A DNA stretch of 63,744 bases, filler included, from Globobulimina sp. (taxonomy: Eukaryota), in NCBI GenBank assembly GCA_003354225.1. It is 26 parts of 26 records of this genome, joined end to end, with 100 filler letters (N's around TTAATTAATTAA, not from the genome) between each part and the next. Parts side by side here need not be neighbours in the genome. Positions count along the whole stretch, not along the records: positions 7,372 to 9,728 come from PIVH01007176.1; 25 more parts are not named here. One strand, given 5' to 3'. This document shows positions 4,666-57,396 of the stretch, one piece after another. Position 1 is the first letter of the stretch; the number at the start of each line of letters is the position of its first letter. The notes below the pieces were generated by a model. That model searched no databases and was not told the origin of the DNA. It saw only the letters and a list, made by a program, of their open reading frames with translations. Made by a program: the position numbers and the translations under genes.

Positions 4666-4914
4666 CAACGCTTTTATTTCTATCACTATTTAAACTTGCT
4701 ACAATATATATATTTAGGCTCTTTCCTTACGCATACACCACAATTTTATTCAGTAGTAATACACCACAATATATAAGCCACAAGTCAGTAATTTCGTGGC
4801 TTATATATATAAATNNNNNNNNNNNNNNNNNNNNNNNNNNNNNNNNNNNNNNNNNNNNTTAATTAATTAANNNNNNNNNNNNNNNNNNNNNNNNNNNNNN
4901 NNNNNNNNNNNNNN

Positions 4915-5075
4915 AGCAGGCCGCTCAACTGGCTGACTTTATCAACACAGTCATAAGTAATATTGACAATGAGACGGTCATTGAGACGGTGGGGAGGGAT
5001 GTGCTCATGCTCTGTTCACAGTTCCCCGTGCCAGAGCACTTTATTGTTCCCAAGAAGAGCAACGGCGTTGTCTAA
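4915..5075 (+). CDS. glyA: Bacterial serine hydroxymethyltransferase, C-terminal fragment
   Basis: Frame from 4917 reads QAAQLADFINTVISNIDNETVIETVGRDVLMLCSQFPVPEHF...*, matching the GlyA terminal helix pair ending in CxxFPV; GC much higher than host. Confidence 0.72.
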
Positions 5076-5147
5076 TAAATACAAACGACGCAGTCTCATG
5101 GCCAATGAGGCCGGTGTGCCAGTCAGGGACATTGGGCAAGATCTCGT

Positions 5148-5362
5148 ATGAGCATGGACATACTCAACATAGGTGTTTTGGGATTGGATCGGCGTGGGCA
5201 ACTGGCGATTCGGGCGATTTCTGAATTGTCGGAGTTGCGTATCTGCGCGGTTGCGGATCGTGACACGCAGAAGGCGGAGAAGGCCGCTGCTCTGTTGGAA
5301 TGTGACGCCTACGATGACTATCGCCAGTTCATCATTCAGGGAGAGTTTGACTGTCTGTTTGT
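5148..5362 (+). CDS. Bacterial Gfo/Idh/MocA family oxidoreductase, N-terminal fragment truncated at a chimeric junction
   Basis: LNIGVLGL...ICAVADRD...AYDDYRQFI...DCLFV Rossmann N-terminus; composition switches abruptly to AT-rich near 5362. Confidence 0.8.
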
Positions 5363-6745
5363 CATTTTCAGGGCGAACAAAAAAATCAATGGATTTGAGT
5401 ATATTATATTGGATCCTTTGATATTGTTTTCCAATCTCAACATATAATGCATCCGTACAATCGAGGAACATTAACTGTGTGTGATCACTGCTGAATCCAT
5501 ACCATATGGAACCAACATAAAAGTCAGAGTCGGGGTATAAAGCCAACATTGTTTCAGGTACATTGCCGCTAAATGACGATAATATAATCTCTATGCCCAA
5601 TTCATTGCATCTTGTCATTATCTGTTGTGTTAAAGCTAATTGTTGGTCAAACCAATGCTTTGTCAAACTTAATTAACATTAAAATCATTAATTTTGATGA
5701 ATTATTCACGACACAAAAGCATGAATATGTACAGTAATCATTATACAATGAATAATTCAGCAAAAAAAAATAAATTTAAAAGCAACCTTAACACTCTTTT
5801 TTCCTGTATATATCTCGGAGGCCAACCTTTTAAATTTCCCATTCTAAACCAAGCAAAAAAAGCGGGACCAACGAAATATTCCATCAAGTCATCGTGAGAT
5901 AATTTAAAGTGTTTGGTCCATAAAACATATTCAATCAACTCGTTGAGCGATGGCAACAAAAACAAGTTAATATTATTCATCGCCATCCAATCGATATGAG
6001 GTTCCCATTCAGCAAAAGTCCAAAACGCCATGGAATAGCTATCTGTGCAAGGATTTTTATAATAGGTATGTTCATATTGACGATAGCCATAAACAATGTT
6101 ACTGACTGGGTTATGGATGGTGTCGTTGATAAATTGGTAATATTCGTCATATACAAATTGAATGTTATTCCCAGTCCAGGAGACAGATAATAGCCAATAA
6201 TTATTTATGTAATAATTTAAGCCAGAAATGATGGATAAAATATCAGTGCCAGCGATGATGATTGCATCTGGTTGGATATCTATGGTATAACAGCCATAAA
6301 TGGTTGATTTTGCAGTGGGTGATACTGCAGCACATAACGTTGAAATGGGTTGAATGTCGAATTTGAATTTATCACTGATTGTAGCTACATCAATATCGGA
6401 GGGATGTTTTTGTTGCAAAATACGACGCAGTAAAGCATGAATTACGTTTGTGTCAGCATTCGGGTTGAAGTTATGATGAGTGGCTGATTCATGTTTTGTT
6501 TTTTTGTGATTTGAATAAACGCCGATATTGTTTGGTCGCGTTTGTGGTGATTCTGTCAAGGTGATAGGTGAAAGTCGTTGGTAATTTGTGTATGGATAGC
6601 TGACGTACAATACAGTGACGAATGTAAATATCATTAAACAAAACCAGACACAGAAGAGACATAAGCACCACCATTTTAAATGCTTGATGCGTGAAATTCT
6701 AACGAGTGTGTTGAAAAAGAAATTCTTGGCCTGGCCTCGTGCCAT
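5363..6745 (-). CDS. NAGLU: Alpha-N-acetylglucosaminidase (GH89), 3' truncated; intron 5668-5786
   Basis: YYKNPCTDSYS..W...WE..IDWMAMNNIN, GPAFFAWFRMGNL, then WFDQQL.L..QIM.R..ELG..FSGNVP; N-terminal signal anchor. Confidence 0.92.
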
Positions 6746-6804
6746 GGTTAGCTAGTTTTTGATTTTGCACAAATACTGAAGTTAATTGTTTTCAAAATTT
6801 CAAA

Positions 6805-7271
6805 TTATGAAATTGATCCGTCCATAATTCCTTGAATTACAGGTTGAAGATTCTCTTGCATATATTTATCAGTTGTACACAATGAACCATTCATAGTATA
6901 TCTCATAGTTATAACAAATTCCACTCCGTGATTTGGAATAACATTATCTGTGTCGTATACTGGCAAACATGTATATGAATTATGGACAATATCACTATTC
7001 CCATCACCGAGTTTACTTAATATTCTCCATCGACCTTTTGTATTTTCATCAATCTGTGATATATTTTGTAAACATGATTGAATATACCATGCGATATCAG
7101 TGGATCCTCCGCCCCATAAAATACCTGGAAACATGGTACTATTCATCGGCCCATACATTAATTGCTTAACATCCTCCCACTCAGCATTTGGATATTTCCA
7201 TTGTGGCTCTTCTCGCGTCATTATGATCCTTTTATACATTTCAGACTCAGCAATTGCTGATAAACTGTTTG
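6805..7271 (-). CDS. Hypothetical protein, 5' partial
   Basis: Frame open from contig edge: NSLSAIAESEMYKRII...WEDVKQLMYG..FPG..WGG..WRILSKLG. Confidence 0.6.
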
Positions 7272-7371
7272 NNNNNNNNNNNNNNNNNNNNNNNNNNNNN
7301 NNNNNNNNNNNNNNNTTAATTAATTAANNNNNNNNNNNNNNNNNNNNNNNNNNNNNNNNNNNNNNNNNNNN

Positions 7372-9728
7372 TTCATCGATTTTTTCATTCTCAACTTTAA
7401 CATTTATACATAATATTTTAAATGATGACCTTTTTATCATGCTTTCTGATTCCGAATGGTGTTGTTCATCCCACAGATCTGTGAACTTATTACTTTCAAC
7501 ATTATCAAAATTAATCGGCAGTGATCTAAATGTGCTCATTGACTGCGACATTGGTAATGTTGTGGTTGGTATATGATCATTATGCAAATTGGTATATGTA
7601 TTATAAGTATTATCGCGTCGCGTTGTTGCTCTATTTATAGCAAATAATTTTGATACATATTCACGATCAATATCCAAAGGTGCCACCTCTGATTTATTTG
7701 CTTCACTTTGCTCGATCTCAAATCTTACTCTCTTTTCTACAGTTTTATTTTCTTTATTTTTATCATCTTTTCCATCTTCATCGATATCCTCATTATGATC
7801 GTTTGGATATATCATTGGATTTGGAATCTTGAATGATTCGACAGCGGCGAAGCCAAAGTTCGTCGTAGCAAACATGGACATATTTGATGGTTTTAATAAT
7901 TGCTCGATTTTATTGAATGGTATAATAAATAATAAATATTGATTTTGCCAAATTGGAGTATTTGTATTATAAATAATGTATGATTTAACCTCGGTGTTTA
8001 TCGCAGGAATTGATACGACCGCAAAAGGATTAAATGTCTGACCATTATTACTATGCAAATCAGCGGATAATATTTCCACAATAATTGGGACACCTTCTTC
8101 TTCACATAATGCCATTGTATACTTTTCGTGTTTTGGCTCAAGCATTGAATCAATAATACATTTTTTATATTCAACTTCATTCAATTTATGATAATTTGAC
8201 GCAATTAATAATGAGATCAAATTAAGCGAATGATTTTTTAACGCAAAGTTTAACGAATGATCATAATCCAATAAAGATATCCTTTGTTTCGAGGACCTTA
8301 TCTTTAACAATAAGTCTAAGAGCCATATTTCATTCTTATTTGCATGATCAGCACCAATTAAATCCCAAAACAGTTCACAAACATTATACGAACTGACAGA
8401 CCGTGCCACATCTTTTCTCATTACAATACAACATCGCGCAAACTCGGCAAAACCAAAATTTTGATTTTGATCAATGTCAAATATTTCAAATAAATAATTA
8501 ATATCTTGCTCTTGTCGGGATAGAATTAATTCTAATCTTTTATTATCCGCTTCATCATTGTACTGCGATATTGTTTTTCCAAAGTATTTGCATGATAAAC
8601 GGTGCAAATTCTCGATTGTATACATTGATATTTTCAATGTTGATATGTTGCAGGAGGGAGTAATAAATGCCTTTGCCACTAAGCCCAATCCATCAGTATC
8701 CAATCTATACTGGCTCCAATTTACATTGATTCCAGTTTTGCTGCCACGTTCTATGGCAGGTAAATACGGCACGAATTTAAATGAACCTTGAAAGACCACA
8801 GTAACATATTCCACAAAATTCATGCCATTCTTTTTGGATTCAACAATCAATACAATGCACCAAAATATTGTTACAATCAAAGAGGATATCAATGCCAACA
8901 CAACACTCCATACATTTATAGCTAATCCATCATTTGATTGAGCCAATAATATTAATAGCAGTAATTGCAAAATACTTTGCGGCAATGATTCAGCAAAAAT
9001 CTCTGAAACTCTTCGCAGTTTCCAATATCCTAACTCTTCAAAGGAAATTACTCTCAATTTTAAGAATTTATGATCAGTAGCAATGCAAACGGATAATAAA
9101 TAAAGCAATGGGCGAAGTACTGAATATTCTAAAACATGCAATATGTCGCCAAGCAATAACACCAACATACCAATTGGCGCAATGCTAAATAATATAACAG
9201 CTACTTTCCAATAAAGTGGTATGTGATTTAATTTATTTGCGGAGAGTTGAATTTGCATATTATGCACTTTTCGCACCAGCCATTGCGTTGTAGCAACCCA
9301 TGCAATTAAATACGGTGAAATTAGAAATATAACGGATGTCATAAAAAATAATGTTGCTGATGTACCAATGCTTGTCGTTGTTACTTTATAGAGTTGCACT
9401 ATTACAATAACATCGGTTATGATATCACTAAATATAACCACTTCAATGCCAGCTTGGATGAATACAATTAATAGCATTGGACACCAGGGATGAACTCGCA
9501 TCCATCCAATCACCCAATTTAGCAAACTTAATTAAGGTAGCATAGCAACAGAAGTATTTGAGAGGAAAGTTGCATTCATTCAGCGTCATAGAAACAGTTC
9601 TCAGGATCTCGTTTGTTGAGAAGCGTTTCTGTGACGCTGCTCAGTATAAAAAATCAAATATTAGCTACCTTAATAGAGTTGAAATACATTTTCCTTTTTT
9701 TGGTTGAACATTGTCATTGGTTTCGTGC
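7372..9728 (-). CDS. XK-related (XKR-like) multi-pass membrane protein with EF-hand and C2 domain; partial at both ends; intron 9527-9668
   Basis: DIITDV and EIFAESLPQSILQL (XK family ESxPQxxLQ); FDIDQNQNFGFAEF EF-hand; NPFAVVSI...NTNTPIWQNQ C2 motif; upstream exon HETNDNVQPKKGKCISTLLS joins in phase 2. Confidence 0.7.
9536..9669. mobile_element. Kolobok-like MITE forming a spliceosomal intron
   Basis: TTAA-GGTAGC...GCTACC-TTAA; internal 23-bp inverted arms 9581-9603 and 9617-9639; further tatttga/tcaaata pairing. Confidence 0.75.
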
Positions 9729-10146
9729 NNNNNNNNNNNNNNNNNNNNNNNNNNNNNNNNNNNNNNNNNNNNTTAATTAATTAANNNNNNNNNNNNNNNN
9801 NNNNNNNNNNNNNNNNNNNNNNNNNNNNTATAAATACTCGACACTTTTCACTAACTTTTCACGAAAGCCATACTCTCGCATTTTTTTAGCGACACAAACT
9901 GGCATTAACTAATCGTCACGCGTTTTGATCTCAGGATGTTTGCAAAATGCACTCACCGATTTATCAGGATTTGCTTCAAATAATACGGGTTCCGGTTCCA
10001 TATATTTACTGATACTCTCCTTTGCTTTTTTGTAAAATAGACGGAGTTTGCTTGGTGAGTTGGAATCAGACATTGTTCAAAGAGATGTTTGCGGAAATTG
10101 TTTTTTTTTTAATTTGCAAAAAACTTTTGTCAGAATTCTCACATTA

Positions 10147-11796
10147 ATGGCAGTTGATATTTTATCGCAAGTAGTTGATGATCCATTTGCGAGTTGGATC
10201 AAATTCGAAGACGATGTGGAATATCACGCCACATTTAGTCAGCAACAGACCATTCCCAACAAAAGCGATCCTTTCGACATATTTACATTTATGAATGAGG
10301 AGAAACAGAATTTGCAACAGAAAGAAAATAATAATATTGAGAGTTTATTAGATTTCAATAAAATGCCATCCAATATTTCATCATTATTTGTCAACAAAAA
10401 GAAACCAAAATTGTGCGATTTGTATAATAAAAGACAAAACAAATCCAAATCAGATGCATTGTCATTGAATATTGTTGGATTGAACACAAATAATTATTTA
10501 CCATCAAAATTAAACAAAGCAACATTGCAAATAATAGAAAATGAGCCGTTTAAACTGAATAAAATTGCAACAAATTTAACAGTACATAGCAAAGTACGCG
10601 ATTTAGAGTCATTTATTCGGCGAATCTATAAAATAAATAATAACATTGGAATATTAATGGTATATTCACATTGCATACTATTAAATGCGCAAAATGCGTT
10701 AAAATCGTATGGAATCTGTGATAATTCGTGTATATTTATTGCAATTTGCGAGGATTTATTCAAATATAACTCCTTCATATTAAGTCACGATAACTCTGCT
10801 GATGACTTCTCGAAATTATTCAATGTGTTGAGGTCTGCCAATACATTATTTATTTTCTAATTAATTTATTAAATATTTGTGCTATTTTCCCATATATTAA
10901 GCACTGATTATTTAGAATTTGAACGTTTGCAATCAAAGATAGTGAATGAAATACATCGATATCAATTAAATGGATTCGAATGTAAACAAATAACAGATTT
11001 AGATATATTGACATATGAAATGGACACAAATTGCGTTGCGATGCCCTGTGGACATGGAATGACTGCAAATGCGTTGCATAGCTATGTCGAATCGGAACTA
11101 AATGCAAACAAAATATTTATTAAATGTCCGCATATAAAACCAGATTCGAACCAAAAATGTGGGGAAATTTGGTATTTTCCGATTATAAGGTACTTTGCGC
11201 ACAAATTGCTGCAAATAAATGCACAAAATATGTACTTTGGAATATTTAGATATATTTTGATGAAATCGACGCAATTTAAGTTGAATAATTTGATGCGGTT
11301 AGAATTATTGTCATCGCTCAACACATTCAAAACATATTATCATAGCTCCAAATGTCGGCAATGTAAACATAATTTGTACCGACATTTTTGCGATGATAAA
11401 GACCGCAAAATATCTCACTGTCCGTTGTGTGTTAATACATTTTGTTGGAAATGTGGTGGAATTTGGTTGGATAAAACGTCAACAAAACGCTGTGGGAATA
11501 GCAACTGCAATGATTTGGAGAGCGAAGTGTTGCAAATATTGTCCCAATGCGCCTTGAAAAGAGTTGGTTCGGTTTGTGGTGTTCCGTCCATTCGATTGTG
11601 TCCATCCTGCAGTCAGTTAATAAATCACACGGAAGGCTGTAAGCATATGAATTGCCCGCGATGTAAAGCAAATTTTTGTTTTGTTTGTTTGAAAGTAATG
11701 GTTGATAATGATTGGCAATGCGGGTCATCTTCGACAATATGTCCCGTAGCACCCAAACAAACAAATTGTATCCATCAAAAAAAGCAAATATCATAG
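10147..11796 (+). CDS. RBR-type (RING-IBR-RING) E3 ubiquitin ligase with ubiquitin-like domain; introns 10833-10901 and probably 11190-11249
   Basis: Ubl-like KVRDLESFI..LKSYGICDNS; MPCGH..CP; CPLCVNTFCWKC; CPSC...GCKHMNCPRCKANFCFVC (RING2). Confidence 0.85.
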
Positions 11797-13179: not shown

Positions 13180-14641
13180 ATGAACCTTAATAGGAAGCTC
13201 TCTGACTCGTCATCGTCATCAAATTCTGCTGATCTCGCAGTACCTCCAAGTCCTCCGGCTCATGATGGCAGAGATGAGACTGACACGCAGAGCAAATCTA
13301 TCTTCCCTCGAATACAGCCTCCGTCCATTTTACGTCTGCATGAAGGCGATGAAATAAAATCAACCATCTCGCAAGGCATGAAAATATATATTTATCCGCC
13401 ATGCACATACAACAACATATGCCTATAAATGATATAAAGGCATGTCGCAATATGCGAGTAACATATCCATCCGGTCATTGATCAAAATTGGAGCAGCAGA
13501 TACTACGAGAATGTTGTTATCCAAATCTGATGCATTGATCAATATTTGTAAATGTTTCACGGGCGCTTCCTTATTTGTGCTCCCTTGGGCTTTTTTGCAA
13601 TCTGGAATGGTGTTAGGTGCCGTATCCTTTATATTGCTCGCATTCCTCACCTATTACACCACATATTGGCTCGTCTTATGTGGCCATATGCATCCGACCA
13701 ATGATTGTCCCACATATCCGGACATTGCGTATGTGGCCTTTGGTCAAATTGGTTTTTACGTCGCATGGCTCGGCATATTGATGATGACAATGGGTGCCTG
13801 CGGTTCGTATTTGGTTTTCATTGGATCGCAGTTGGAGACCATTATAGAAATTGACGCATTAGAACAACATGTCATCATTTTGCTTGTTTCTGTGCCAATA
13901 ATGTTGTTGTCATTATTGAGGAGTTATCGTTTTTTAGTACCTTTTAATGTTTTAGGCTTATTCTCGTTATTTTTCTCTGCGATTATGGTCATTGTGCAGG
14001 CATCAAACGGTATTCCTACTACTTATGATTGGAATTATTACAATGATTTTAATATTAAGGTATAATATGACATCGCAGTCAATTTCCAACAGCATTCTGT
14101 TGGGAATTTTGTGTTGTTGTTGTTTCTGTATATTACATAAATTGCATTTAATCCATGTGCCACATTTAAGGATTTATGGGGTTCGTACCCGCATTTTTTG
14201 GGGAATGCAGCATTTGCATTTTTGATCCATAGCGTAATATTGCCCATCGAGGAGGGTATGAATGATCGCAGAAAAGACAGAGTGTCCACAGATTTCATGC
14301 AGTCATTGAATCGTTCAATTGTTATTATTACAATTTCATTTTTAATATTTGCACAATATACTTTTTTTTCATTTGGACATGGAACCTGCGGCAATATTAT
14401 AGACAATTTGGATGCGAGCAAATGGTCCAATAAGTTGGTCATCGTGGCATTGTGCATAAATTTATTCTTTACCTATCCATTGTTTTTATTTCCTATGGCG
14501 GAGTGCTTAGAATTAACCATCTTTAAATTTGATGTTAATCCAGAAAACGGGAAGGCATTGGATGGCAAACTTGAGATAAAAAGGAACATTTTGAGGATAT
14601 TATTGATTTTGCTAAGTTGCGGCATTGCAATGATAGTGCCA
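13180..14641 (+). CDS. Amino acid transporter (AAAP/SLC36-38-like), 3' partial; introns 13376-13439 (GC-AG) and 14060-14170
   Basis: NICKCFTGASLFVLPWAF..SG, TYPDIAYVAFG, GNAAFAFLIHSVILPIE, FFTYPLFLFP. Confidence 0.9.
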
Positions 14642-14741: not shown

Positions 14742-15984
14742 CCCTTTATCGCGTGCCATCGCCCCCGTTGTCAGCTCAATTTGCAGCATGATAATGCCCG
14801 TTGCCTTATACATCTTATTTATATGGCTGATGGATGAATTTTCAACGCAGTATTCCTTCGACACCTTATTAAATGGATGGGCCATCCCAATGTCTACCGA
14901 TGTCGCTTTGTCGTGGGCCGTATCAACGTTTGTCTTCAATGAACATTTGGATTACACTTCGACGCAAGCAAGTTTACGCGAAATGCATCCCTGCATTTCA
15001 TTTCTTTTATTATTGGCAATCTGTGATGATATTTTAGGCATAGTTGCAATTGGCATATTTTATAAGAAGGACACGAAGAACATTGACTCCATTGATGTGA
15101 GATGGTTGTTGTTGGTGTTTGGTGCCATGGTTTTAGCCTTCATGGCCAACAAATTGATGTCTCTGCATCTTTGGTGGTATTATATATTTATCGTCGGCTC
15201 AATCTCGTGGGTTGGCTTCCTATTATCCGGTATCCATCCCGCCATCGCACTGATTCCTATCATGCCCTTTATGGTAATCTACAAAGGACAGAGACGACGG
15301 GTTGCCAGTATCAGTGAGTTAAAATATATTTATATTATGTTTCTTGTCAACGTTTTTTGTGCAGAAACGGTGTGTGTTTGATCTGACTGTTACGAATTAA
15401 TAAATTTATCGTTTGTGACAGGTGACAATGAGCCTTTAATCCATCTCTCGCCTTCAACTACTAATTACAACGAATATTCGTTGCATATGTTGAATAAATT
15501 CGAAAAGAGAATTGGCCGATTTGTGGAATATGGGTTGTTTTTTTTCACTTATTGCAATGCAGCCGTACAATTCTCGGATTTCGGGGCCATTTCGCTTTGT
15601 GTGTTTGCAAGTTTATTCCTTGGTAAAATTAGTGGGATAACATTCGGCTCGTTTATGGTGAATAAAGTGTGTGGGTTCGCATTGCCGGCTCATATGACCT
15701 TAGGACAAATACCGTTGGTTGGGTTTTGTGGCGCAATTGGTTTGATTGTGGCATTATTTATATCGGACATAGCATGGGAAGATCAGGCCATTATCGATCA
15801 AGCAAAAATGGGAATATTGTGTGGTGCTATTTTTATAATTACGGTGGCTTTGTTGTATCGATTTGTCACTAAACCATCGCCTATTTATTCAATGAAACAT
15901 GAACCACCAATTCAAAGTGTTCAAAGTGTCCAAGCTGAAGAAATGTCAAAAACGTCAAAAACAAGTGAATTGGTGCAAGTATAA
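14742..15984 (+). CDS. nhaA: NhaA-type Na+/H+ antiporter, 5' partial; intron about 15314-15421
   Basis: GWAIPMSTD, FLLLLAICDD, SGIHPAIA, LFLGKISGI, AIGLIVALFI..AKMGIL; GTGAG donor and CAG acceptor join in frame. Confidence 0.88.
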
Positions 15985-17197: not shown

Positions 17198-19538
17198 AGG
17201 CGGGACAGATTTCTTTATCCACAGATCCTTGTTATCAATAGAAACACTCCATTGATTGGCTTGGAATTGTTTTTGAAATCTATCCAAAAAATCTTGTTTT
17301 GGATCCAAATTCTGATATTTTGCATATCTAAACTGTATTGTTCGCAGTTTAACTTTACCTCTCTGAATCTCTGCAGTTATTTGTTGTAATTGACAAAATA
17401 ATGCCGATATAAACCTATTGCTCATATTATTATCTCTCACATCTCGCGTTGCTGCAAAATCAACCTGCACTTTACTGCAATTTCTAAACAATAAACATAA
17501 ATTATCAAAATTCAACAAATTACTAACTTCGTTATGCATTAACAACGCTAAGAAACCATTATAATATTTATGTAAATATTCTATTCGAATCTTAATCACT
17601 TTCTTATTCAAACAAAATGCATTCCATGTTTCCATTATATATTCCGGGAACTTATTATTTCTTTTATTCATCAATTTCTTTATTATTTTATAATCCGTTT
17701 TGCTGATTAATGCACGTTCAGCCTCCAACGGATAATCCTTTGTTATCACATAATTAAACAACGCAAAGCTCTTTATAAAGAATTTATAATTTTCATTTGT
17801 TTTCATCGAGCGAACGGATCGAAACCCCAACGGTTTATATCCGCCTATAAGTAAAACAGAATTAATTATAAAGCGTACTCATCATAGCAGTGAGCAGTTA
17901 ATAACAAACCAAAAAAGAGCCTCTCGTCTTCATTGCCATAGCTTGATAACCAGCTGCAATAAAAATAAGTTAATCGGCCATCATCCATTCCTAACTCCAG
18001 TATCAATCCGTCGTTTTTGGCAAATGTGGTAGCAACACATATTTGGGCAGTGGTTGATGTTGGAGCGCAAAAATACGATACAAAGGAATCAATTTGCAAA
18101 TAACTAACGCCATGATAAAAAACGTTAATATCCGAATCCATAATATATGTGCCATAGCATTCCACAGTTTCCCTTTTTCAAAGCATAAAAATATGCGCAA
18201 ACCTGTAAAAAAAACGTGTGGATTTCCGAGAAAGCAGTACCTTAAAATTTTGCTCCAGTTCCAAAACTCTGAATTTCTTGTTTTCAAACTTGCATTCTTT
18301 TCATAACGATGTATTTTACGAAAGGTTTTGCTAAACTCATACGATAATGTATCATAATCACAGTACACAATAACCGCAATAATATTTTCTACTTTAATCA
18401 GTGAACCAGATGGAATTTCATATTTATCCAATAACTCACCGCAAGGAATTATATTTCTTCGACAATATTCAGATTTTAAATTCTCTGAAGCACGATATAA
18501 TACATTTTGATATTCGTTTGGTGAAATTGTCAATATTTTATTGCATAACAACTCAGATTTCAATGTAGAATATTTCCGATTAATAAACCAAAATTTGTAT
18601 TTATAGCCTTCGTTTGGTCCTTTTAGTTCTTTCTCGTCATTATTTCTATAATAATCCCAGTAATAATACCTATGACCAAATGAATATGTTGACTTATTTT
18701 CGGTTTTTTCGTCTACAGAATCTTTATGCTCATTATTGTTCATATTGGGATGAATTGTTTCTGTTTCTTCATTTTGCTGCATTTCTTCCTCGGAATCACT
18801 GGATTCGGATTGCATTTTAGTTAAAAATTTGTTATGTTGCATTCTATTCATACCACGGATAGATGATAATTTCTTGCGTTTTTCGTCGAGAATATCCCTC
18901 AATTGTTCCATTTGAATGTCTTTATACAAATATGAATCACTTTTTTTTTCATCGTTTGTAATATCAGCCTCAACTTTGGAGATTTCGTCTGCTTTTAATC
19001 TAAATCCAATATCAAACGAATGAACAAAGTAACAATGGATTGTGTCCATGGTATCGATGCAAAATTGAAGTGCAGCATCCTTATTTTTAATGGTATTGTT
19101 GTCATCGTCGGTATCACTCTGTTTCTCTCTGTGTCTATGATTGCGCGCTAATTTGGTACATTGGTCTAATGAGCAGTGATGAATATATTTCATGATTATG
19201 TTGTGAATTGATTCAAATTCTTTTTGTATTTCAATCACGGGTTTATTGTCTAGATGTTTATCAATAATATGATGATAATCAGTCAATAACAAATTATAAT
19301 TTCGTGGCTCAAAATATTTCGACAATGCATTTAATTCTTCATTCGATTGATAAAATTGTAATGCTTTACATAGTCTTTGTAAATATGCGCAATTCGTCAC
19401 TGATGTGCATGTATGATCGTAAGTATCTAATCTCTATACAATTGCAAAAACAATAGGTACGTATGTGCAATTCTGCTATATTAAACTGTTGAAAGTGTAC
19501 ATGTAGTGTAATACCTTTGTATTTTGTGGTTGCGCCAT
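17198..19538 (-). CDS. Large lineage-specific protein with ADP-ribosyltransferase-like motifs; introns 19434-19514, 18173-18240, 17845-17909; 3' partial
   Basis: Spliced reading MAQPQNTK/RLDTYD...KILR/ETVECYG...FYHG...PTSTT...EDERLFFG/GYKPL; all GT-AG and in frame. Confidence 0.8.
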
Positions 19539-22475: not shown

Positions 22476-23230
22476 ATGTACATTTATCTATCTAACTATG
22501 CAACAGAAGTGACATTGATTCGAGCCATAACCGGCTCAGATTACAGAATTAACATCGCACAAAAAGCTCTGTTAGAGACCGTGCAATGGAGAGTCAGTAG
22601 TCGCGTGGATGAAATATCACCATTAATGTTTGAAAAATCAATCAAAACAAAGGTAGTTTTCAGTTACAATCAACATGATAAAAAAGGACATATTATCTGT
22701 TATTTTAAAGTGTTAGAAGTACCGCCAGAGGATCCTTGGCAAATTGTACGCGCTGCAGTATGGACCATAGTTTTGTTATTTGTTATCTATTATTTGTTAT
22801 TCATCCTTGCACTATTTATTATTGATAGGAAAAAGCAATAAAAATGTCACGCAAACGTGGCATACATCAAATTATGTGGTTATTGGATATTGAACATTTG
22901 CAGTACGCGACAGTTCCGCCACTACAGATATTGAAAGAGATAGCACACATTTTGCAGTATTATTATCCAGAGAGGTTGTATCGTGCCTATGTGCTATTTA
23001 GTCCTTGGGTGTTTAGAATGGTTTGGAAAATGGTCAGTGGCCTTTTAACTGAAAACACAAAAGGCAAAATTATTGTGCCTGGATGGTATGAGTCTGCTAA
23101 ATATGAAACATTCGCGCAACATATTGACAAAGCGAATTTGGATAAGAGATTTGGTGGCGATGCTCAATTTAAGTATTCCTATCAATGGGAAATTGATCAA
23201 TACATAAAAAGCAATAAATATATAAAATGA
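22476..23230 (+). CDS. CRAL-TRIO (Sec14-like) lipid-binding protein; intron 22770-22828; true start probably upstream
   Basis: ETVQWR, HDKKGH, ILQYYYPERL, PWVFRMVWKMV..LLTENTKGKI, RFGG. Confidence 0.88.
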
Positions 23231-32960: not shown

Positions 32961-33777
32961 TCATACTGGCAATTCCATATACTTTCCGATGCTCACTGCC
33001 TTGAGATAATAATAAAAGAAATCGATATATAATAAGGTTTGCACAATGCCAGAAACCCAAGCAATTGGATCGTAATAATTGTCTTCCGATAAAAAGCGAT
33101 AAATCCAATTTATAACATATAGGGCCCGATATGCGCCCAAACAAAATACATAATGCGAGGTTATATTTTGCACACTGCCTTGGTTATCTTTTGCGTATTT
33201 CTGAAGCATCACTAACTGCGGCATTATGGAGACAGACTGTAATTTGTGTAATATGTACGTTGTATGAGTATGGCGATGATGTGTATTAAATAAATAGAAA
33301 TAGAAAATAAATGTTTTAACTTCTAAATAAATGGAGAATGCCCATAATATCTCAAACGGAGTGAATGTAACATTAAAAAAGAAGGCTAAGATAAAGCATG
33401 GTATTATTAGTATTAATACTTGGAATTTGTCAGAAGCCGCATCGTAGGTTCTACAAATTGGATTTTTAAATTTCATATAATAAACGATAGCGTATGAGGT
33501 TAAGATGAAAATTAATTTCATGACCCAATTATATAAGGACCAAAAATTCCAAAATAAATCCAAATAACGACATGTAAATACCACGCAATATAAGGCTTGC
33601 GTTTTGAGAGAGATTCCCTAAATATTATTAATCAAATGAATGAGTGCAAGGATATTATTATCATTTCTCATTGTCATTGTACTAAACTACACAATTTTGA
33701 GCGCCTGCGACTTTTAGTAATAATATGAATATACTGATAAGATGTATGAAATCGGCACCCAGCCGGAAGATGTTCAT
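32961..33777 (-). CDS. ERD2: ER lumen protein-retaining (KDEL) receptor; introns 33618-33687 and 33237-33320
   Basis: MNIFRLGADFIHL, GISLKTQ, RYLDLF, WAFSIYLE/SVSIMPQL, LGAYRALY, DFFYYY. Confidence 0.96.
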
Positions 33778-35626: not shown

Positions 35627-36340
35627 ATGGCTAAGGTGGACAACAAAGCATCCAACACCCAAATTATGCAAATGCATAATCTCAAAAAAAAACACGGTGT
35701 GGTGGGTAAAATTGATGAAGTCGATTTAGGATGTACTGATATTATATATTACAATGGCTGTAAGTGTTTAAATGTGGCTGACCCAAATCAGTTGCCCTGT
35801 GTCATCCGACCTAATCCCAACGTATGATATCTGATCACCCATATCCTTGCACAAACACTCAACACAACACAACACATATTCTTATCTAATCTGACATAGG
35901 ATGCATACTTAACGAGTGACCCTGACGTTGATGGCCAAATAATGATAAAATTGCAGTTTCGTGATCCAGTGTCATTGACGAGGATAATATTGAGAGCCAC
36001 CAAAGGGCCCTCGGCCGATGACATAAAAGAAGCATTTGACGATGATGAGGACGATGAGGATCATACGCCAGCGGGGCCCCGTTTAATTAAATTATTTGCA
36101 AATAAGCCAGAATTAGATTTTACTGATGCGGAAGACATGAAACCTGCGCAGCAAATTGCAATTAAACCAAAACAATTAAAAGGCGATAAATTGCAATTAA
36201 AAGCACTTAAATTTCAAAGATGCACATCATTACAAATATTTTTTGTGGATAACCAGAAACAATCAGAATTTACCTTTGTTAATAGGATTGGATTAGTTGG
36301 CCGATTGGCAAAAGGATATCATACTGAATATGGAAAATGA
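35627..36340 (+). CDS. PITH domain protein; intron 35822-35899
   Basis: CLNV, LTSDPDVDGQMMI, GPRLIKLFAN..LDF, KFQRCTSLQIFFVDNQ. Confidence 0.88.
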
Positions 36341-44209: not shown

Positions 44210-46388
44210 AAAAACAAAAACAAGAATAAAAAGAAAAATAAGAAAAAGAAAAAGAAATTGGAGGATTATTTTTCCAATCAACCGCTGAAAAAAAGACGGC
44301 GATTAAATAACGGCCACGCAAAGAAAAAGAAAAAGAAAAAAAAAGAAAAAGGCGGCAATGACATATACGAGGCATGTTTCTCTATATTTTTTCGATCTCA
44401 GATTTGCTTTTTTCTGACATTTATTTTTTTCGATTCTCAAAGCGATGGTTGGCTAAAAATCAGGGCAAATCTTCCAGAAAACCGTGGGTCGACGTAAAAC
44501 AACGCACATTGATCGTGGGCCCCTTAGCCATCCTCGACCAATGGAAGGAGGAGATCGATGATCGCGCACCAAACCAATTCAAAGCGTGCGTGTACTACGG
44601 CGCAAACCGCAGAAAAAAGTTCGACAAATACAAACTGCGCAAGTTCGACGTAGTCATCACCACCTTCGGCCATGTCACGAGCGAATATTGCAAAGGCAAC
44701 GAAGAGAAACAAAGTGGTTTATTCGCGCTCCCCGAGGGTTTCTTCCATCGCGTAGTGTTGGACGAAGCGCATACGATTAAAAACCCGGCGTCGCAACAAA
44801 GCAAAGCCTGTGCTTACATCGCGAACCGCGGCGTGAAAGTCCGTTGGTGTTTGACGGGCACACCGATCCAAAACAAATTATTAGACCTATTCCCATTGTG
44901 CCGCTTCTTGCAGATCAAGCAATGCGGCACGGCCAAGGACTTCAAGTCCTTTTTGAAGCTCAACAATAACAGCAAGAGCACGGTGAGCGGCCGGAGCAAG
45001 CAGTTAGTGACTAGTTTCTTGGCGGCGCACATGTTACGGCGCCTCAAGTCGGAGGTTGTGGACGATTTGGTGTCGAAGACGGAGGAGGTGATCGAATTGG
45101 AGTTTGACGAGGCGGAGGACCACGTTTATAAAGCCTTTCAGAACCAGGCTCTGTCGCGGTTTAATAAGTATGTGCAGGCCGGCACTGCCAAGAAGAACTA
45201 CGCGCATATTCTGGTGCTGTTGCTGCGGCTGCGGCAGATTTGCGACCATCCGTACTTAGCGATGAAACCTCAGGATGGGCAGTCGGAGGCGGTTGGCGGT
45301 GATGAGAGTGACGGGATGGACGTGGATGGCGATGGAGATGGCAATGTTGGGGTTGGTGGTGATGATGGCGGGGATCCGTTGAGTAAGATCGATGCGACGG
45401 TGGTTCGGCGGTTGAATGAGAGGGAGAGTATATTGGACGCGGAGTGTCCTATTTGTTTGGATATATTTAACGACGGAGTGATGTTTCCAAATTGTGGCCA
45501 TTTGGTCTGTAAGGAGCATTTGTATGATTTGGACGAGAAATGTCCGGAATGCCGAGGCGTTTTTAGGGTGAATGGGGTGGTTCCATTTGCGGTGATTATC
45601 AAATCGGCGTTGATTGATGAAAAACATAAGAAGTCGTTTTTGGCGAATGATGGCAGAGATGGCCTAATTATGGATGGAAACATTGTGGCTGAAAAGATGG
45701 GGAATGTGTCGCCGGAGAAACACAAACGAGCCAACCGACGCGTTGTATGGCGGAAAATAAGTGCGGCGAAAGGGAAGTATCGGTCAAAGGAGCAGATTGA
45801 TCGACAGTTATTGGAAGAAAAGGAGGAGAAGAAAGAGGATGACAATGATATGAAGGATAAATTGAAACAAATGCAAGCTAAATTCGAGTGGAGTACGTAT
45901 GAATGCGATGAGAAATTTACTGCGGAATTTGACGATGATGACGAAGAGGGATATAAGTCGGATGATAAATATCCAAATCGAGAGTCGGGATGGCCGTTTA
46001 TTCCATCCTCCAAAACCAAAATGATGATAGAAAAGATCCAGGCCATTCGCAGGGACACTCCCGATGACAAAATTATTGTTTTCAGTCAGTTTACGACTAT
46101 GTTGAGTGTGTTGGAGCGAGTGTTGCGTAAATATGATATTAATTATTTGATGTATGATGAGTCCAAGACGCGGCAGCAAAGGAAGGACATTATCGATGAT
46201 TTTAAAAATGATTCGTTTAATGATATTCCAGTGATGTTAAAGAGTCTGAAATGTGCAGCTTTGGGCTTGAATTTAACCGTTGCGAATCATGTCATGTTTT
46301 GCGATTTGTGGTGGAATCCGGCCATTGAGTCGCAAGCAATTGATTGGGTGCATAGAATCGGACAAAAGAAACATGTGTTTATTACACG
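44210..46388 (+). CDS. SNF2-family RING helicase (Rad5/Uls1/TTF2-like), partial; GC-AG intron 44372-44442
   Basis: TLIVGP, VVLDEAHTIKN, WCLTGTPIQN, LRLRQICDHP, RING CPIC..CGH..CPEC, IVFSQF, GLNLT, WWNP, HRIGQ. Confidence 0.92.
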
Positions 46389-47211
46389 GCATATAAATCT
46401 CATTAAATTACACGACAAATGGATTGTTTTAAAATTGGATTTAATAAGATTTTTTTTGCTTGATATAAATAATCCATCTCAACGCCAGCAAATAATGCTT
46501 GATTTTCCAGGTAAATTTCGATTAAATGATTTGGTGATAAATGAATAATTAACGAGGACAACATNNNNNNNNNNNNNNNNNNNNNNNNNNNNNNNNNNNN
46601 NNNNNNNNTTAATTAATTAANNNNNNNNNNNNNNNNNNNNNNNNNNNNNNNNNNNNNNNNNNNNTGCTATTCATCATTTGTTTTTTATTAGTGAATAATG
46701 CAGCATTACAATGCTTAAATGAAAACGGACACGATGTTGATTGGTGGTTTATTTACAAGATTAATAATGGATTATCTTATACAACTTCTCAATCTCAACT
46801 TCTCAACTTCTCAATGGCACCTTGCCAATAATTCTTGACTACTTCGAAGCTGATCCATTACATAACGACAGTACCTTTAACTGTTTATAGCCTCCATCGC
46901 GAGCACAGTCAATTACACGTCGTTATATTAGCTTTTTTATTCAATTAAACAGGCAATTAAGTCACAAGACACAACCTGGCCGATTCATTTTTCATCACAC
47001 AAGCAGAATACGAAGAGATCCAACACAACGAAGCAGTTCGAACAATTACAAATCACACACCTATTTATCAACAAATTTCAAGAGAAATTACTGCATTCGT
47101 TACATTCAACGAAGTAACAAATAAAGATATCGATCATTCGATTAGTATTTATAACGAAACGAGAAGAAATCTCATCGCTGAGAATAATTTGAGAGCATTT
47201 GAGTCTGAACA

Positions 47212-49146: not shown

Positions 49147-50809
49147 TTAAAATCATTGATTACAAGTTACAATCTAGATTTCAATAAAAACGCACCGCCA
49201 GCAAGTGCAGCAACAGTTAATGGCGAAATACTGAACGGCAATTGCCATTTTTTAGGTTTTTCCTCCGTAAACATTTTCCAAATCTTATTTTTAAAATCAG
49301 TAAATGGCGGCAAACGCAAAGAATAGCTCCCCTCACCAGAATATTTATTCAATACCGGTTTCTCGTGACAAAAAGCAGCAAATGAATACCAACCATGGTA
49401 CTTACCAGTACCGCTATGCCCAATACCGCCAAATGGAAATCCTGGGAATGCACAATGAGAAACAACATCGTTTATAGTCACACCACCGGCATCGGTGTTG
49501 TTCACTATCCTGTCCGCAAATGATTTGTTTGCCGTAAATATGTACATCGCCAATGCTTTCGGCTGTGATTGAATAATCGGAATGGCGTCAGTCAAAATAT
49601 CATCCACCGGAAATATAGATATTATCGGTCCAAACACCTCCTCGCTCATCACTGGCGAACTAAAATCGATATTGGACAGAATGGTCGGTGCTATATAATT
49701 GTCCGAGACATCCACCTCTCCGCCAACCGCAATGTTCACTTTATTCTCATCCAAAACCTTGTTCAATCGCTGAAAATGTTTCTCATTTATGATCCTCGCA
49801 TAGGCCTCACTTAATTGCGGATTCTCTCCAAAAAACCCAGTAAATGCGCGTTTCAGTGCAGTGATAATTTTGTGCTGTGACGTTTTGTTAACAATAATAT
49901 ATTCCGGCGCTAGGCAGACTTGTCCAGCATTGATGCACCAACGTCCCCAGGCAATGCGCGTTGCGGCCATGTCAAAATCACAATTATCATCCAAAATGAC
50001 GGGATTCTTACCGCCTAACTCCAACACGCAAGGCGTTAAATGCTGCGCCGCCGCACGGGCCACGATCTTACCAATGTTGCAACCGCCGGTGAAAAATATT
50101 AAATCGAACTTATTTTTGAGCAAAAGTGTGGTTTCTGTGACACCTCCATTCACCACATGGTAGCAATCGGAATCTAAGTATTTGGAAATTAAGCTCTGTA
50201 TCAATGCAGCAGAATGACTGGAAACTTCTGATCTGTGCAAGGATGATTTGATTCACTTTAATGTATATATTGGCAATTAAGTATATTACATACGGTTTGA
50301 TGATGGCAGTACAACCCGCAGCAATGGCACCTGCTAAAGGGAGGAATGTGAGTAGGAATGGAAAGTTCCAGGGACTGATTAATAAAATATTACCCAATGG
50401 CGTATAATGTAAATATCCGGAATCTGTGATGAAAGCAGTGGTGGAGGCTATTTTTTTGGCTGTCATGTATTCTGATAAATGGTTGATTTGATGAGCAATT
50501 TCAGATTTGGAGATGGAGATTTCTGTGATACTGATCTCATTTTTGGGGCGATGTTTCATGTCTGATTGGATTGCCTGCGTTATTTCGTCTGCGTTTTCAT
50601 CGATTAATTTGTATAATTGATGTAATTGTTTCCGACGATAGGATTCAGGCAATGTTATTCCTTTTAAAAATGATCTTCTTGTTTTTGAAATTATCTGTAT
50701 ACCGTTGCAATCATTAAACTATCTATTTCGATCAGACTCATCAAGAGAAGGAATTTTTTTTTTTAACGTTTGGAATTTCCGAGATTTTTGTGTAGTGTTG
50801 AGTTGCCAT
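49147..50809 (-). CDS. ALDH3: Aldehyde dehydrogenase family 3 (fatty ALDH-like); introns 50695-50767 and 50233-50293
   Basis: PWNFP, KP/SEV, FFTGG, LELGGKNP, NAGQVCLAP, EEVFGP, PFGGIGHSG; C-terminal TM ending SRL (PTS1-like); TAA stop at about 49167. Confidence 0.93.
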
Positions 50810-57123: not shown

Positions 57124-57396
57124 ACCACTACGTTGTGTATACATAGATCACTATATTTTTATGACAATTTGTGCAGACGATGTACTTTTTTATTTTATCA
57201 ATTTGTATTTTATTCAATATTATATTCTACTTACAAAAATTAATATTTTTTTCAAAATTTCTCCTTTTGCCATAACAAAAAAACTAATATTCAATTATAG
57301 AACAAACAGAATCAGTTGTGTTTATCGTGAAAACATTCCTGAAACTGTTTTTGCGCAAAAACAAAAAACTATTGTTATCCTTGCACTTGATGGAGT

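Follow-up and report, generated by a model that had tools for sequence, protein, structure and literature searches.

A palindrome-ended 142-nt intron at a TTAAG site in a Globobulimina membrane-protein gene, and its possible origin from a small fold-back DNA element

The origin of new introns has long been debated, and ‘introners’ are the best-documented answer. As set out in the main text of PMC9860276, an introner brings one splice site with it, the second being provided by a 4-bp target-site duplication or by the neighbouring exon, and the message is left unchanged; examples from Symbiodinium microadriaticum and Chrysochromulina have terminal inverted repeats and short target-site duplications (main texts of PMC9860276 and PMC12130899), with terminal-inverted-repeat transposons making up ~82% of classifiable introners in the second of these accounts, where ~72% of introners are unclassifiable. 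Here, we describe a 142-nt intron on the minus strand of a 63,744-base stretch of DNA from the foraminifer Globobulimina sp. (assembly GCA_003354225.1; ‘the window’ throughout), which interrupts a gene for an XK-related/C2 membrane protein, is bordered by inverted repeats flanked by TTAA, and may derive from a mobile element.

The TTAA flanks bring a second set of systems into play. Kolobok transposons make TTAA duplications and have RR..YY termini (purines at one end, pyrimidines at the other), distinct from the termini of piggyBac, according to passages in PMC9587614, and the Xenopus T2 MITEs (miniature transposable elements with inverted repeats) described in part of PMC6004289 target TTAA and bear a terminal AGGRR motif; the distinction on which a preliminary description of the locus had relied is therefore in print. 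Literature searching found no paper containing both ‘introner’ and ‘TTAA’. Neither main text of the two introner studies yielded a case from Foraminifera or other Rhizaria: piggyBac, Kolobok, Rhizaria and foraminifer are absent from that of PMC12130899, and Rhizaria and Reticulomyxa from that of PMC9860276, although the supplementary tables of the two studies, where families and species are listed, may include such cases. For Lemnamoeba, a passage of a recent rhizarian genome paper (PMC13746701) records the absence of any introner signal.

The intron and its host gene

The features of the piece that carries the intron (7372-9728) are listed below; here and throughout, a slash within a sequence marks a splice border, or a split or insertion point.

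9669..9728, minus strand: upstream exon fragment, truncated by the contig end, encoding ...HETNDNVQPKKGKCISTLL and the opening two bases of a Ser codon (translation, BLASTP).
9527..9668, minus strand: intron, 142 nt, GTAGCT...TTAATTAAG, phase 2 (codon split AG/T) (sequence, joined contigs of 4/4 runs, gap-free orthologs).
7372..9526, minus strand: downstream exon, a frame of ~718 codons still open where the contig stops, for a membrane protein of XK-related / C2 / EF-hand type (homologs, domains).
9664..9673, minus strand: 5' terminal arm TTAAGGTAGC (TTAA + GGTAGC), including the donor G/GT (inverted-repeat search, sequence).
9532..9541, minus strand: 3' terminal arm GCTACCTTAA; next come another TTAA and a G (9531-9527), the source of the acceptor AG (sequence, inverted-repeat search).
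9581..9639, minus strand: internal fold-back with 23-nt arms (20/23 paired) and a 13-nt loop (inverted-repeat search, folding).
9729..9828, no strand: artificial linker N44-TTAATTAATTAA-N44, joining two unrelated contigs; outside the gene.

Read on the minus strand, the interruption runs CTATTAAG/GTAGCT...GCTACCTTAATTAAG/TTTG, with 142 nt between the slashes (9668..9527) and GT..AG borders placed just where the preliminary description had put them. The long frame (7372-9531) comprises 720 codons, and relatives of the protein that it encodes contain PF09815 and PF00168; the closest of these, from the EukProt sets of foraminifera, belong to Bolivina argentea (P0001, 73% identity) and Nonionella stella. 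The 19 codons 5' of the interruption translate to HETNDNVQPKKGKCISTLL, which BLASTP matches to residues 326-338 of P0001 (E 1e-4), and exon 2 then opens with SLLNWVIGWMR against SLVKWIIQWMR in P0001 from residue 339; there is zero gap between the two matches. Removal of 142 nt, within a Ser codon split AG/T, accordingly leaves a protein that is colinear with its orthologs and free of gaps. With GT..AG borders and an open frame restored in this way, we regard the 142 nt with high confidence as a genuine U2-type GT-AG intron of the XK-related/C2 membrane-protein gene, precisely removed.

Two other classes of object were considered and rejected: a U12-type intron, as the donor here is GTAGCTAA and the U12-type 5' splice-site consensus is RTATCCTT; and a known intronic RNA gene, as an Rfam scan of 9450-9728 returned no family at gathering score, with weak generic hairpin/miRNA matches of at most 27 bits.

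Working inwards from its borders, the intron is bounded by an outer inverted repeat (9525-9541 / 9664-9680; 17 nt, 88%, 15/17) that runs through TTAA into the flanks and has a perfect core of 11 nt, ATTAAGGTAGC. The terminal repeat GGTAGC...GCTACC described at the outset is indeed present within it, with TTAA flanking both arms and a further TTAA at the 3' end, such that the 3' part of the intron reads GCTACC TTAA TTAAG/TTTG. Between these arms lies an inner inverted repeat (9581-9603 / 9617-9639; 23 nt, 87% complementary, 13 nt apart), the interior fold-back of the earlier account, which our inverted-repeat search recovered with 20 of 23 positions paired. The RNA fold of the whole intron has an energy of -36.8 kcal/mol (z -5.25; 0/200 shuffles as good) and the DNA fold a z of -5.32. 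Within a zone from 7 nt outside to 15 nt inside both intron borders, a perfect terminal inverted repeat of at least 11 nt arose in 5 of 20000 random trials (~2.5e-4 per intron), and the terminal repeats of seven other introns in the window are just 3-4 nt long. In addition, ATTAAG stands at both borders, forming a 6-nt direct repeat.

The block 9532-9673, with its perfect 10-nt ends TTAAGGTAGC / GCTACCTTAA, is exactly 142 nt long, and its excision, which the six-letter freedom of the border permits, yields the joined form discussed below. Since the arms GGTAGC..GCTACC enclose 134 nt whilst 142 nt are removed (134 + 8, not 134 + 4), one extra TTAA has to be counted with the element. The reconstructed empty site is near-palindromic around the insertion point (AACTCTA/TTAAGTT, 5/7 positions symmetric; flanks 9671-9680 and 9520-9526), a kind of target that a dimeric transposase would be expected to favour but that is compatible with chance as well.

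Turning to more distant relatives, the site is uninterrupted in all five of the contig-derived homologs compared (P0002, P0012, P0013, L001 and L002; 31-50% identity), in line with the preliminary description. Three of the five show signs of introns elsewhere—in L002 an interruption follows ~50 codons later, P0013 includes an AT-rich insert that is read through, and the open reading frame (ORF) of P0012 ends early—so that at least these three derive from genomic DNA. As far as these distant homologs (31-50% identity) reach, and judged from their sequences, the intron position thus appears to be lineage-specific.

Seven public runs from three studies contain part of the piece, none of them recorded as RNA, and the nine runs listed include no RNA run that contains it. 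In each of the four examined (three studies), a contig joins 9526 to 9669, skipping 142 nt that end GT..AG on the minus strand and giving CTATTAAGTTTG, the very joined form that had been predicted; this can be read either as mRNA, through splicing, or as DNA carrying an empty site. The border of the junction slides over six letters in the joined contigs because ATTAAG stands at both borders. No contig covers 9584-9662 in any of these four runs. Two of the runs (X1, X2) differ from the window at 18 of 2044 and 20 of 2155 letters (~99.1% identity) and two more (X6, X7) are ~95-97% identical, the RNA nature of the latter pair being a guess. As the runs were compared as contigs, strand, depth and library type are uninformative, and as the remainder of the piece 7372-9728 is all coding it offers no internal control for RNA versus DNA. 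Going by the type of data usual for such organisms, the joined contigs are more likely to be RNA.

Other introns and pieces of the window

Our survey of introns was bounded by the make-up of the window, which 25 identical linkers (including those at 2358-2457, 4815-4914 and 7272-7371) split into 26 pieces: five of 2357 nt, nine of 2356, eight of 2355, three of 2354 and one of 2353. Because piece size never rises along the window, the pieces represent short contigs from a fragmented assembly, ordered by length, with a six-frame-stop linker between them. Adjacent pieces are not genomic neighbours, and a gene model or repeat spanning a linker is therefore spurious; the DNA past 9829 belongs to an unrelated contig rather than to the 5' part of the intron-bearing gene, the element begins 55 nt from the end of its piece (minus strand), and the contig end at 9728 limits the upstream exon to 60 nt (9669-9728). 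In all, 61,244 real bases were searchable for this organism. One piece stands apart: piece 19 (44210-46564), with a G+C content of 43.8% against 28-38% in the others, carries a single 728-codon frame for a SNF2-family helicase with a RING finger, and could represent either a different organism present in the sample or an unusual part of the genome.

Calling introns de novo by joining ORFs proved too ambiguous to use (3459 GT..AG pairs, 12 of them with a junction repeat of at least 5 nt, which is the background rate), and we therefore kept to the eight introns whose positions are each set by continuity of a Pfam domain or of homologs. A candidate intron of 38 nt at 18240 (minus, TTAAG donor) was dropped, since its ORF continues for 235 nt in the same frame. 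The pattern TTAAG/GT..(35-500 nt)..TTAAG/ occurs three times in the window, and all three occurrences are introns supported by homology: the 142-nt intron and two look-alikes.

5668..5786, minus strand: look-alike intron, alpha-N-acetylglucosaminidase (NAGLU) gene, 119 nt, gtgTTAAG/GTTGCT...TGTTAATTAAG/TTTGac (Pfam NAGLU profile 2-82 / 85-174 on two ORFs; P0024).
14060..14170, plus strand: look-alike intron, amino-acid transporter gene, 111 nt, ataTTAAG/GTATAA...CATTTAAG/GAT (Aa_trans profile 7-184 / 195-343 on two ORFs).

The junction of the NAGLU intron is read across as ...KRVLSLSKHWFDQQ by a transcript-derived homolog from Elphidium margaritaceum (P0024); a search of the PDB failed to place it. 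This intron contains an 11-bp internal stem and resembles the 142-nt intron at its 5' end, where both have GT(A/T)GCT, a T-rich run and CTGA; the two also share the 13-mer TTAATTAAGTTTG at the 3' junction. The transporter intron uses the sole GT and the sole in-phase AG permitted by the open frames, and shows a junction repeat TTAAG(G) and an internal hairpin.

The remaining five introns, in genes for a Na+/H+ antiporter, an aldehyde dehydrogenase, a CRAL/TRIO protein, a PITH protein and a KDEL receptor, are ordinary in build: none has a junction repeat upstream of its splice sites, all end in CAG or TAG, and their donors are GTGAGT or GTATG(G/A/T) in four cases and GTAGTT in the KDEL-receptor intron. 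The three introns with a TTAAG donor context are thus exactly the three of eight with a TTAAG acceptor, a coincidence with a probability of 1 in 56. They are also the longest (111-142 nt versus 61-108 nt), have no G at donor position +5, lack the motif ATCCTTGCAC considered below, and fold more stably, with z values of -4.9, -2.5 and -2.75 versus -1.7, +0.2, +1.6, +0.6 and -0.7 in a comparison of all eight for which two coordinates of the folded sequences were one base off. TTAAGGT is not over-represented in the window, with seven sites versus ~14 expected from base composition, and three of the seven are donors. Such a junction pattern is what a TTAA(G) target-site duplication would leave behind after the interiors had decayed; eight introns are, however, too few to choose between duplication remnants and a lineage-specific splice context.

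Several further observations concern these genes and introns. The 10-mer ATCCTTGCAC has six exact copies, at 22803-22812(+), 33644-33653(-), 35843-35852(+), 50235-50244(-) and 57377-57386(+) and, in coding sequence, at 6045-6054(-), and 13 copies with at most one mismatch versus 3.4 +/- 1.9 in shuffles (0/100 as many). It lies within four of the five ordinary introns (CRAL/TRIO, KDEL receptor, PITH and aldehyde dehydrogenase), 2-47 nt upstream of the acceptor, and these four have no other mutual similarity; it resembles a U12-type branch site, the donors of its introns not being U12-type, and may be a lineage-specific splicing signal. In the antiporter intron, 15314-15421(+), GTGA starts both the intron and the next exon; this direct repeat of 4 nt, lying just downstream of each border, may be due to chance.

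Around the NAGLU intron, homology ends at four points within ~30 codons when the window is set beside ORF fragments from contigs of related organisms (P0018, P0020, P0022 and P0025): after YFTG, after FRMG (twice) and after GNLK, and in the window (5668-5786 region) after KRVL. At the level of sequence, this scatter suggests rapid turnover of intron positions among foraminifera. Further into the same piece (piece 3, 4915-7271, especially 5016-5450), the NAGLU frame loses its similarity after ~100 codons of the second exon, and the opposite strand bears a more GC-rich ORF, 5109-5447(+), that begins ...DILNIGVLGLDRRGQLAIRAISELSELRICAVADRD..., a start that looks like the N-terminus of an oxidoreductase of the bacterial Gfo/Idh/MocA type. 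The arrangement could reflect one more intron, a rearrangement, chimerism of the contig or a gene acquired by transfer.

Possible origins of the intron

We tentatively favour, from the features of its borders, a reading in which the intron is lineage-specific and came from a small non-autonomous fold-back DNA element with ends GGTAGC..GCTACC, inserted at a TTAA followed by G. Such an element would supply the donor GT as the second and third bases of GGTAGC, and the acceptor AG would be built from the last A of the flanking TTAA and the G of the host; splicing would then remove the element together with one copy of TTAA and, with its two sites provided in this way, would restore the pre-insertion message CTATTAAGTTTG. 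This anatomy fits the introner mechanism as described in the main text of PMC9860276, in keeping with the earlier suggestion that a DNA transposon created the intron: an 11-nt terminal repeat and a 6-nt direct repeat mark the borders, one splice site would be recruited, and the position is absent from all five of the homologs at 31-50% identity. Whether insertion of some kind gave rise to the intron we consider close to evenly balanced; that the intron belongs to a multi-copy, intron-making family is unlikely, and Kolobok in particular is a highly doubtful source. We infer TTAA targeting, and any tie to Kolobok, from the flanks and from the termini, which are GG..CC and so of the RR..YY type. 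A non-autonomous piggyBac element was rejected, its termini being pyrimidine-first.

A number of observations weigh against a mobile origin. The bare pattern of TTAA and a 6-mer followed, within 1500 nt, by the reverse-complement 6-mer and TTAA occurs four times in the window versus a mean of 4.5 in 200 shuffles, so that this pattern alone means nothing, and inside its TTAA flanks the repeat here is only 6 nt long. The remaining 25 pieces of the window (61,244 real bases altogether) yielded no further copy of the element, with blastn-short matches of at most 18 nt and none beyond chance; metagenome, genome and viral contigs, collections that probably lack this organism, gave no exact match to the hairpin pattern with its two arms; and no transposase domain was found in the 51 of 69 window ORFs of at least 120 aa that were scanned. 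The element itself has been observed solely in the assembly of the window. The extra 3' TTAA means that there is no clean 4-bp target-site duplication, and 9532-9673 can equally be read as an insert between CTA and TTAAG without any duplication: the sequence fits both readings alike, just as a single copy fits both a true target-site duplication and a target preference. The NAGLU and transporter introns have no terminal inverted repeat (the 4 nt that they show being TTAA itself) and the interiors of the three TTAAG..TTAAG introns are unrelated, the best local alignment of the 142-nt intron with the NAGLU region being the 13-mer of the 3' junction (score 27, reached by 10 of 500 shuffles), with no significant similarity outside the two junctions. 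Finally, the verified sample is only eight introns, and a ninth, unverified candidate (10833-10901, TTGAG/GT...TTAAG/) weakens the association of donor and acceptor to 4 in 84. The terms ‘MITE’, ‘Kolobok-derived’ and ‘intron generator’ used at the outset therefore draw on one copy with a 6-nt repeat within TTAA flanks; what stands of the preliminary description as a whole is the exact intron-like removal, the continuity of the orthologs and the introner-like anatomy, and what it lacks is a second copy, a clean 4-bp duplication and a visible transposase.

Much of this would be expected of an ordinary lineage-specific spliceosomal intron with no mobile past, an explanation that we consider rather unlikely but the most serious of the rivals. 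In an AT-rich genome such as this one, TTAAG may be no more than a preferred splice context, at exon ends and 3' splice sites; the terminal palindrome would then combine the self-complementary TTAA with chance matches, and the hairpin would reflect local duplication and inversion or a role in splicing. Chance-level TTAA + 6-mer pairs, the failure to find a second copy in the window or in the three contig collections, a verified set of just eight introns, two other TTAAG..TTAAG introns without terminal inverted repeats or internal similarity, and a candidate ninth with a TTAAG acceptor and no TTAAG donor all sit comfortably with it. Harder to accommodate are the 11-nt perfect border repeat, given its rarity in the random trials, and the behaviour of TTAAG itself, which coincides at donor and acceptor in 3/3 introns, is missing from the other 5/8, and marks the same three introns that differ in length, folding and donor (no G at +5) and are without ATCCTTGCAC; nor is TTAAGGT over-represented in the way that a favoured context would suggest, with three of its seven sites being donors.

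A one-off gain through repair of a DNA break, with captured filler or hairpin DNA flanked by the microhomology ATTAAG and neither transposase nor family involved, strikes us as improbable. It would account for the 6-nt direct repeat that brackets the insert, for a single copy within the bases searched and for the absence of the intron from distant homologs, but would leave unexplained both the perfect terminal inverted repeat and the recurrence of the TTAAG repeat in two other introns, one of which shares the TTAATTAAG/TTTG junction. Least probable, in our judgement, is that there is no functioning intron at all, the assembled allele carrying instead an artefact of assembly or an insertion that is private or polymorphic, and the four runs representing DNA of individuals without it. 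Depth is 0 over 9584-9662 in 4/4 runs, none of the seven is recorded as RNA, and the contig stops 55 nt past the element, as it might at a branch in the assembly graph; yet GT and AG are placed exactly where removal restores the frame, such that the spliceosome would be expected to remove the 142 nt in any case, conserved genes are interrupted by two more introns built in the same way, and a 142-nt artefact with such borders is unlikely.

Comparison with introners, TTAA-specific transposons and break-repair introns

Set beside known routes of intron gain, the locus shares something with each. In Daphnia, double-strand-break repair has reportedly been proposed as the source of new introns bordered by short direct repeats; the 5-6 nt direct repeat at both borders and the lineage-specific position recall these, whereas break repair would not be expected to produce terminal inverted repeats or to place one repeat sequence at several introns. 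Like a piggyBac-type element, the insert would have a TTAA target, and taking out the element with one TTAA restores the site precisely; unlike one, the 142-nt intron does not have the usual piggyBac ends CCC..GGG. With Kolobok and T2-type MITEs the locus shares TTAA on both sides, RR..YY termini (here GG..CC), small size and a fold-back, but those of Xenopus, as passages of PMC6004289 describe them, have the AGGRR motif and known autonomous partners, whilst here we find a 6-nt repeat, an extra 3' TTAA and no family of copies in the window.

Should the element indeed be mobile, the wider reading would be that introns at TTAAG sites in Foraminifera are made by small fold-back DNA elements belonging to a TTAA-specific family, with three products in the window: the 142-nt intron, its repeats intact, and the older NAGLU and transporter introns. 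The 142-nt copy would then be recent, and absent from the DNA of 99%-identical haplotypes. We hold this to be unlikely on the present evidence, but if true it would constitute the first introner system in Retaria, and the first with a link to a transposase that cuts at TTAA, whether Kolobok- or piggyBac-like; it would connect intron gain with a class of transposase that leaves a precise, scar-free footprint, explain the rapid turnover of foraminiferal intron positions, and offer a testable mechanism for their variability in genomes that are barely explored. If the intron is instead a one-off, it provides a clean example of a palindrome-ended insert at TTAAG that is invisible to the protein.

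The remaining comparison is with introners. These are defined as families of many similar copies, whereas one copy is seen here, and the flank in this case is TTAA. In other respects the two agree: the element is short, codes for nothing and ends in inverted repeats; it contains one splice site, whilst the other comes from the duplicated target or a host base; the message keeps its length after splicing; and the intron position is lineage-specific. A mobile origin would therefore add a new lineage, and possibly a new superfamily, to the introners, by a mechanism that is not itself new.

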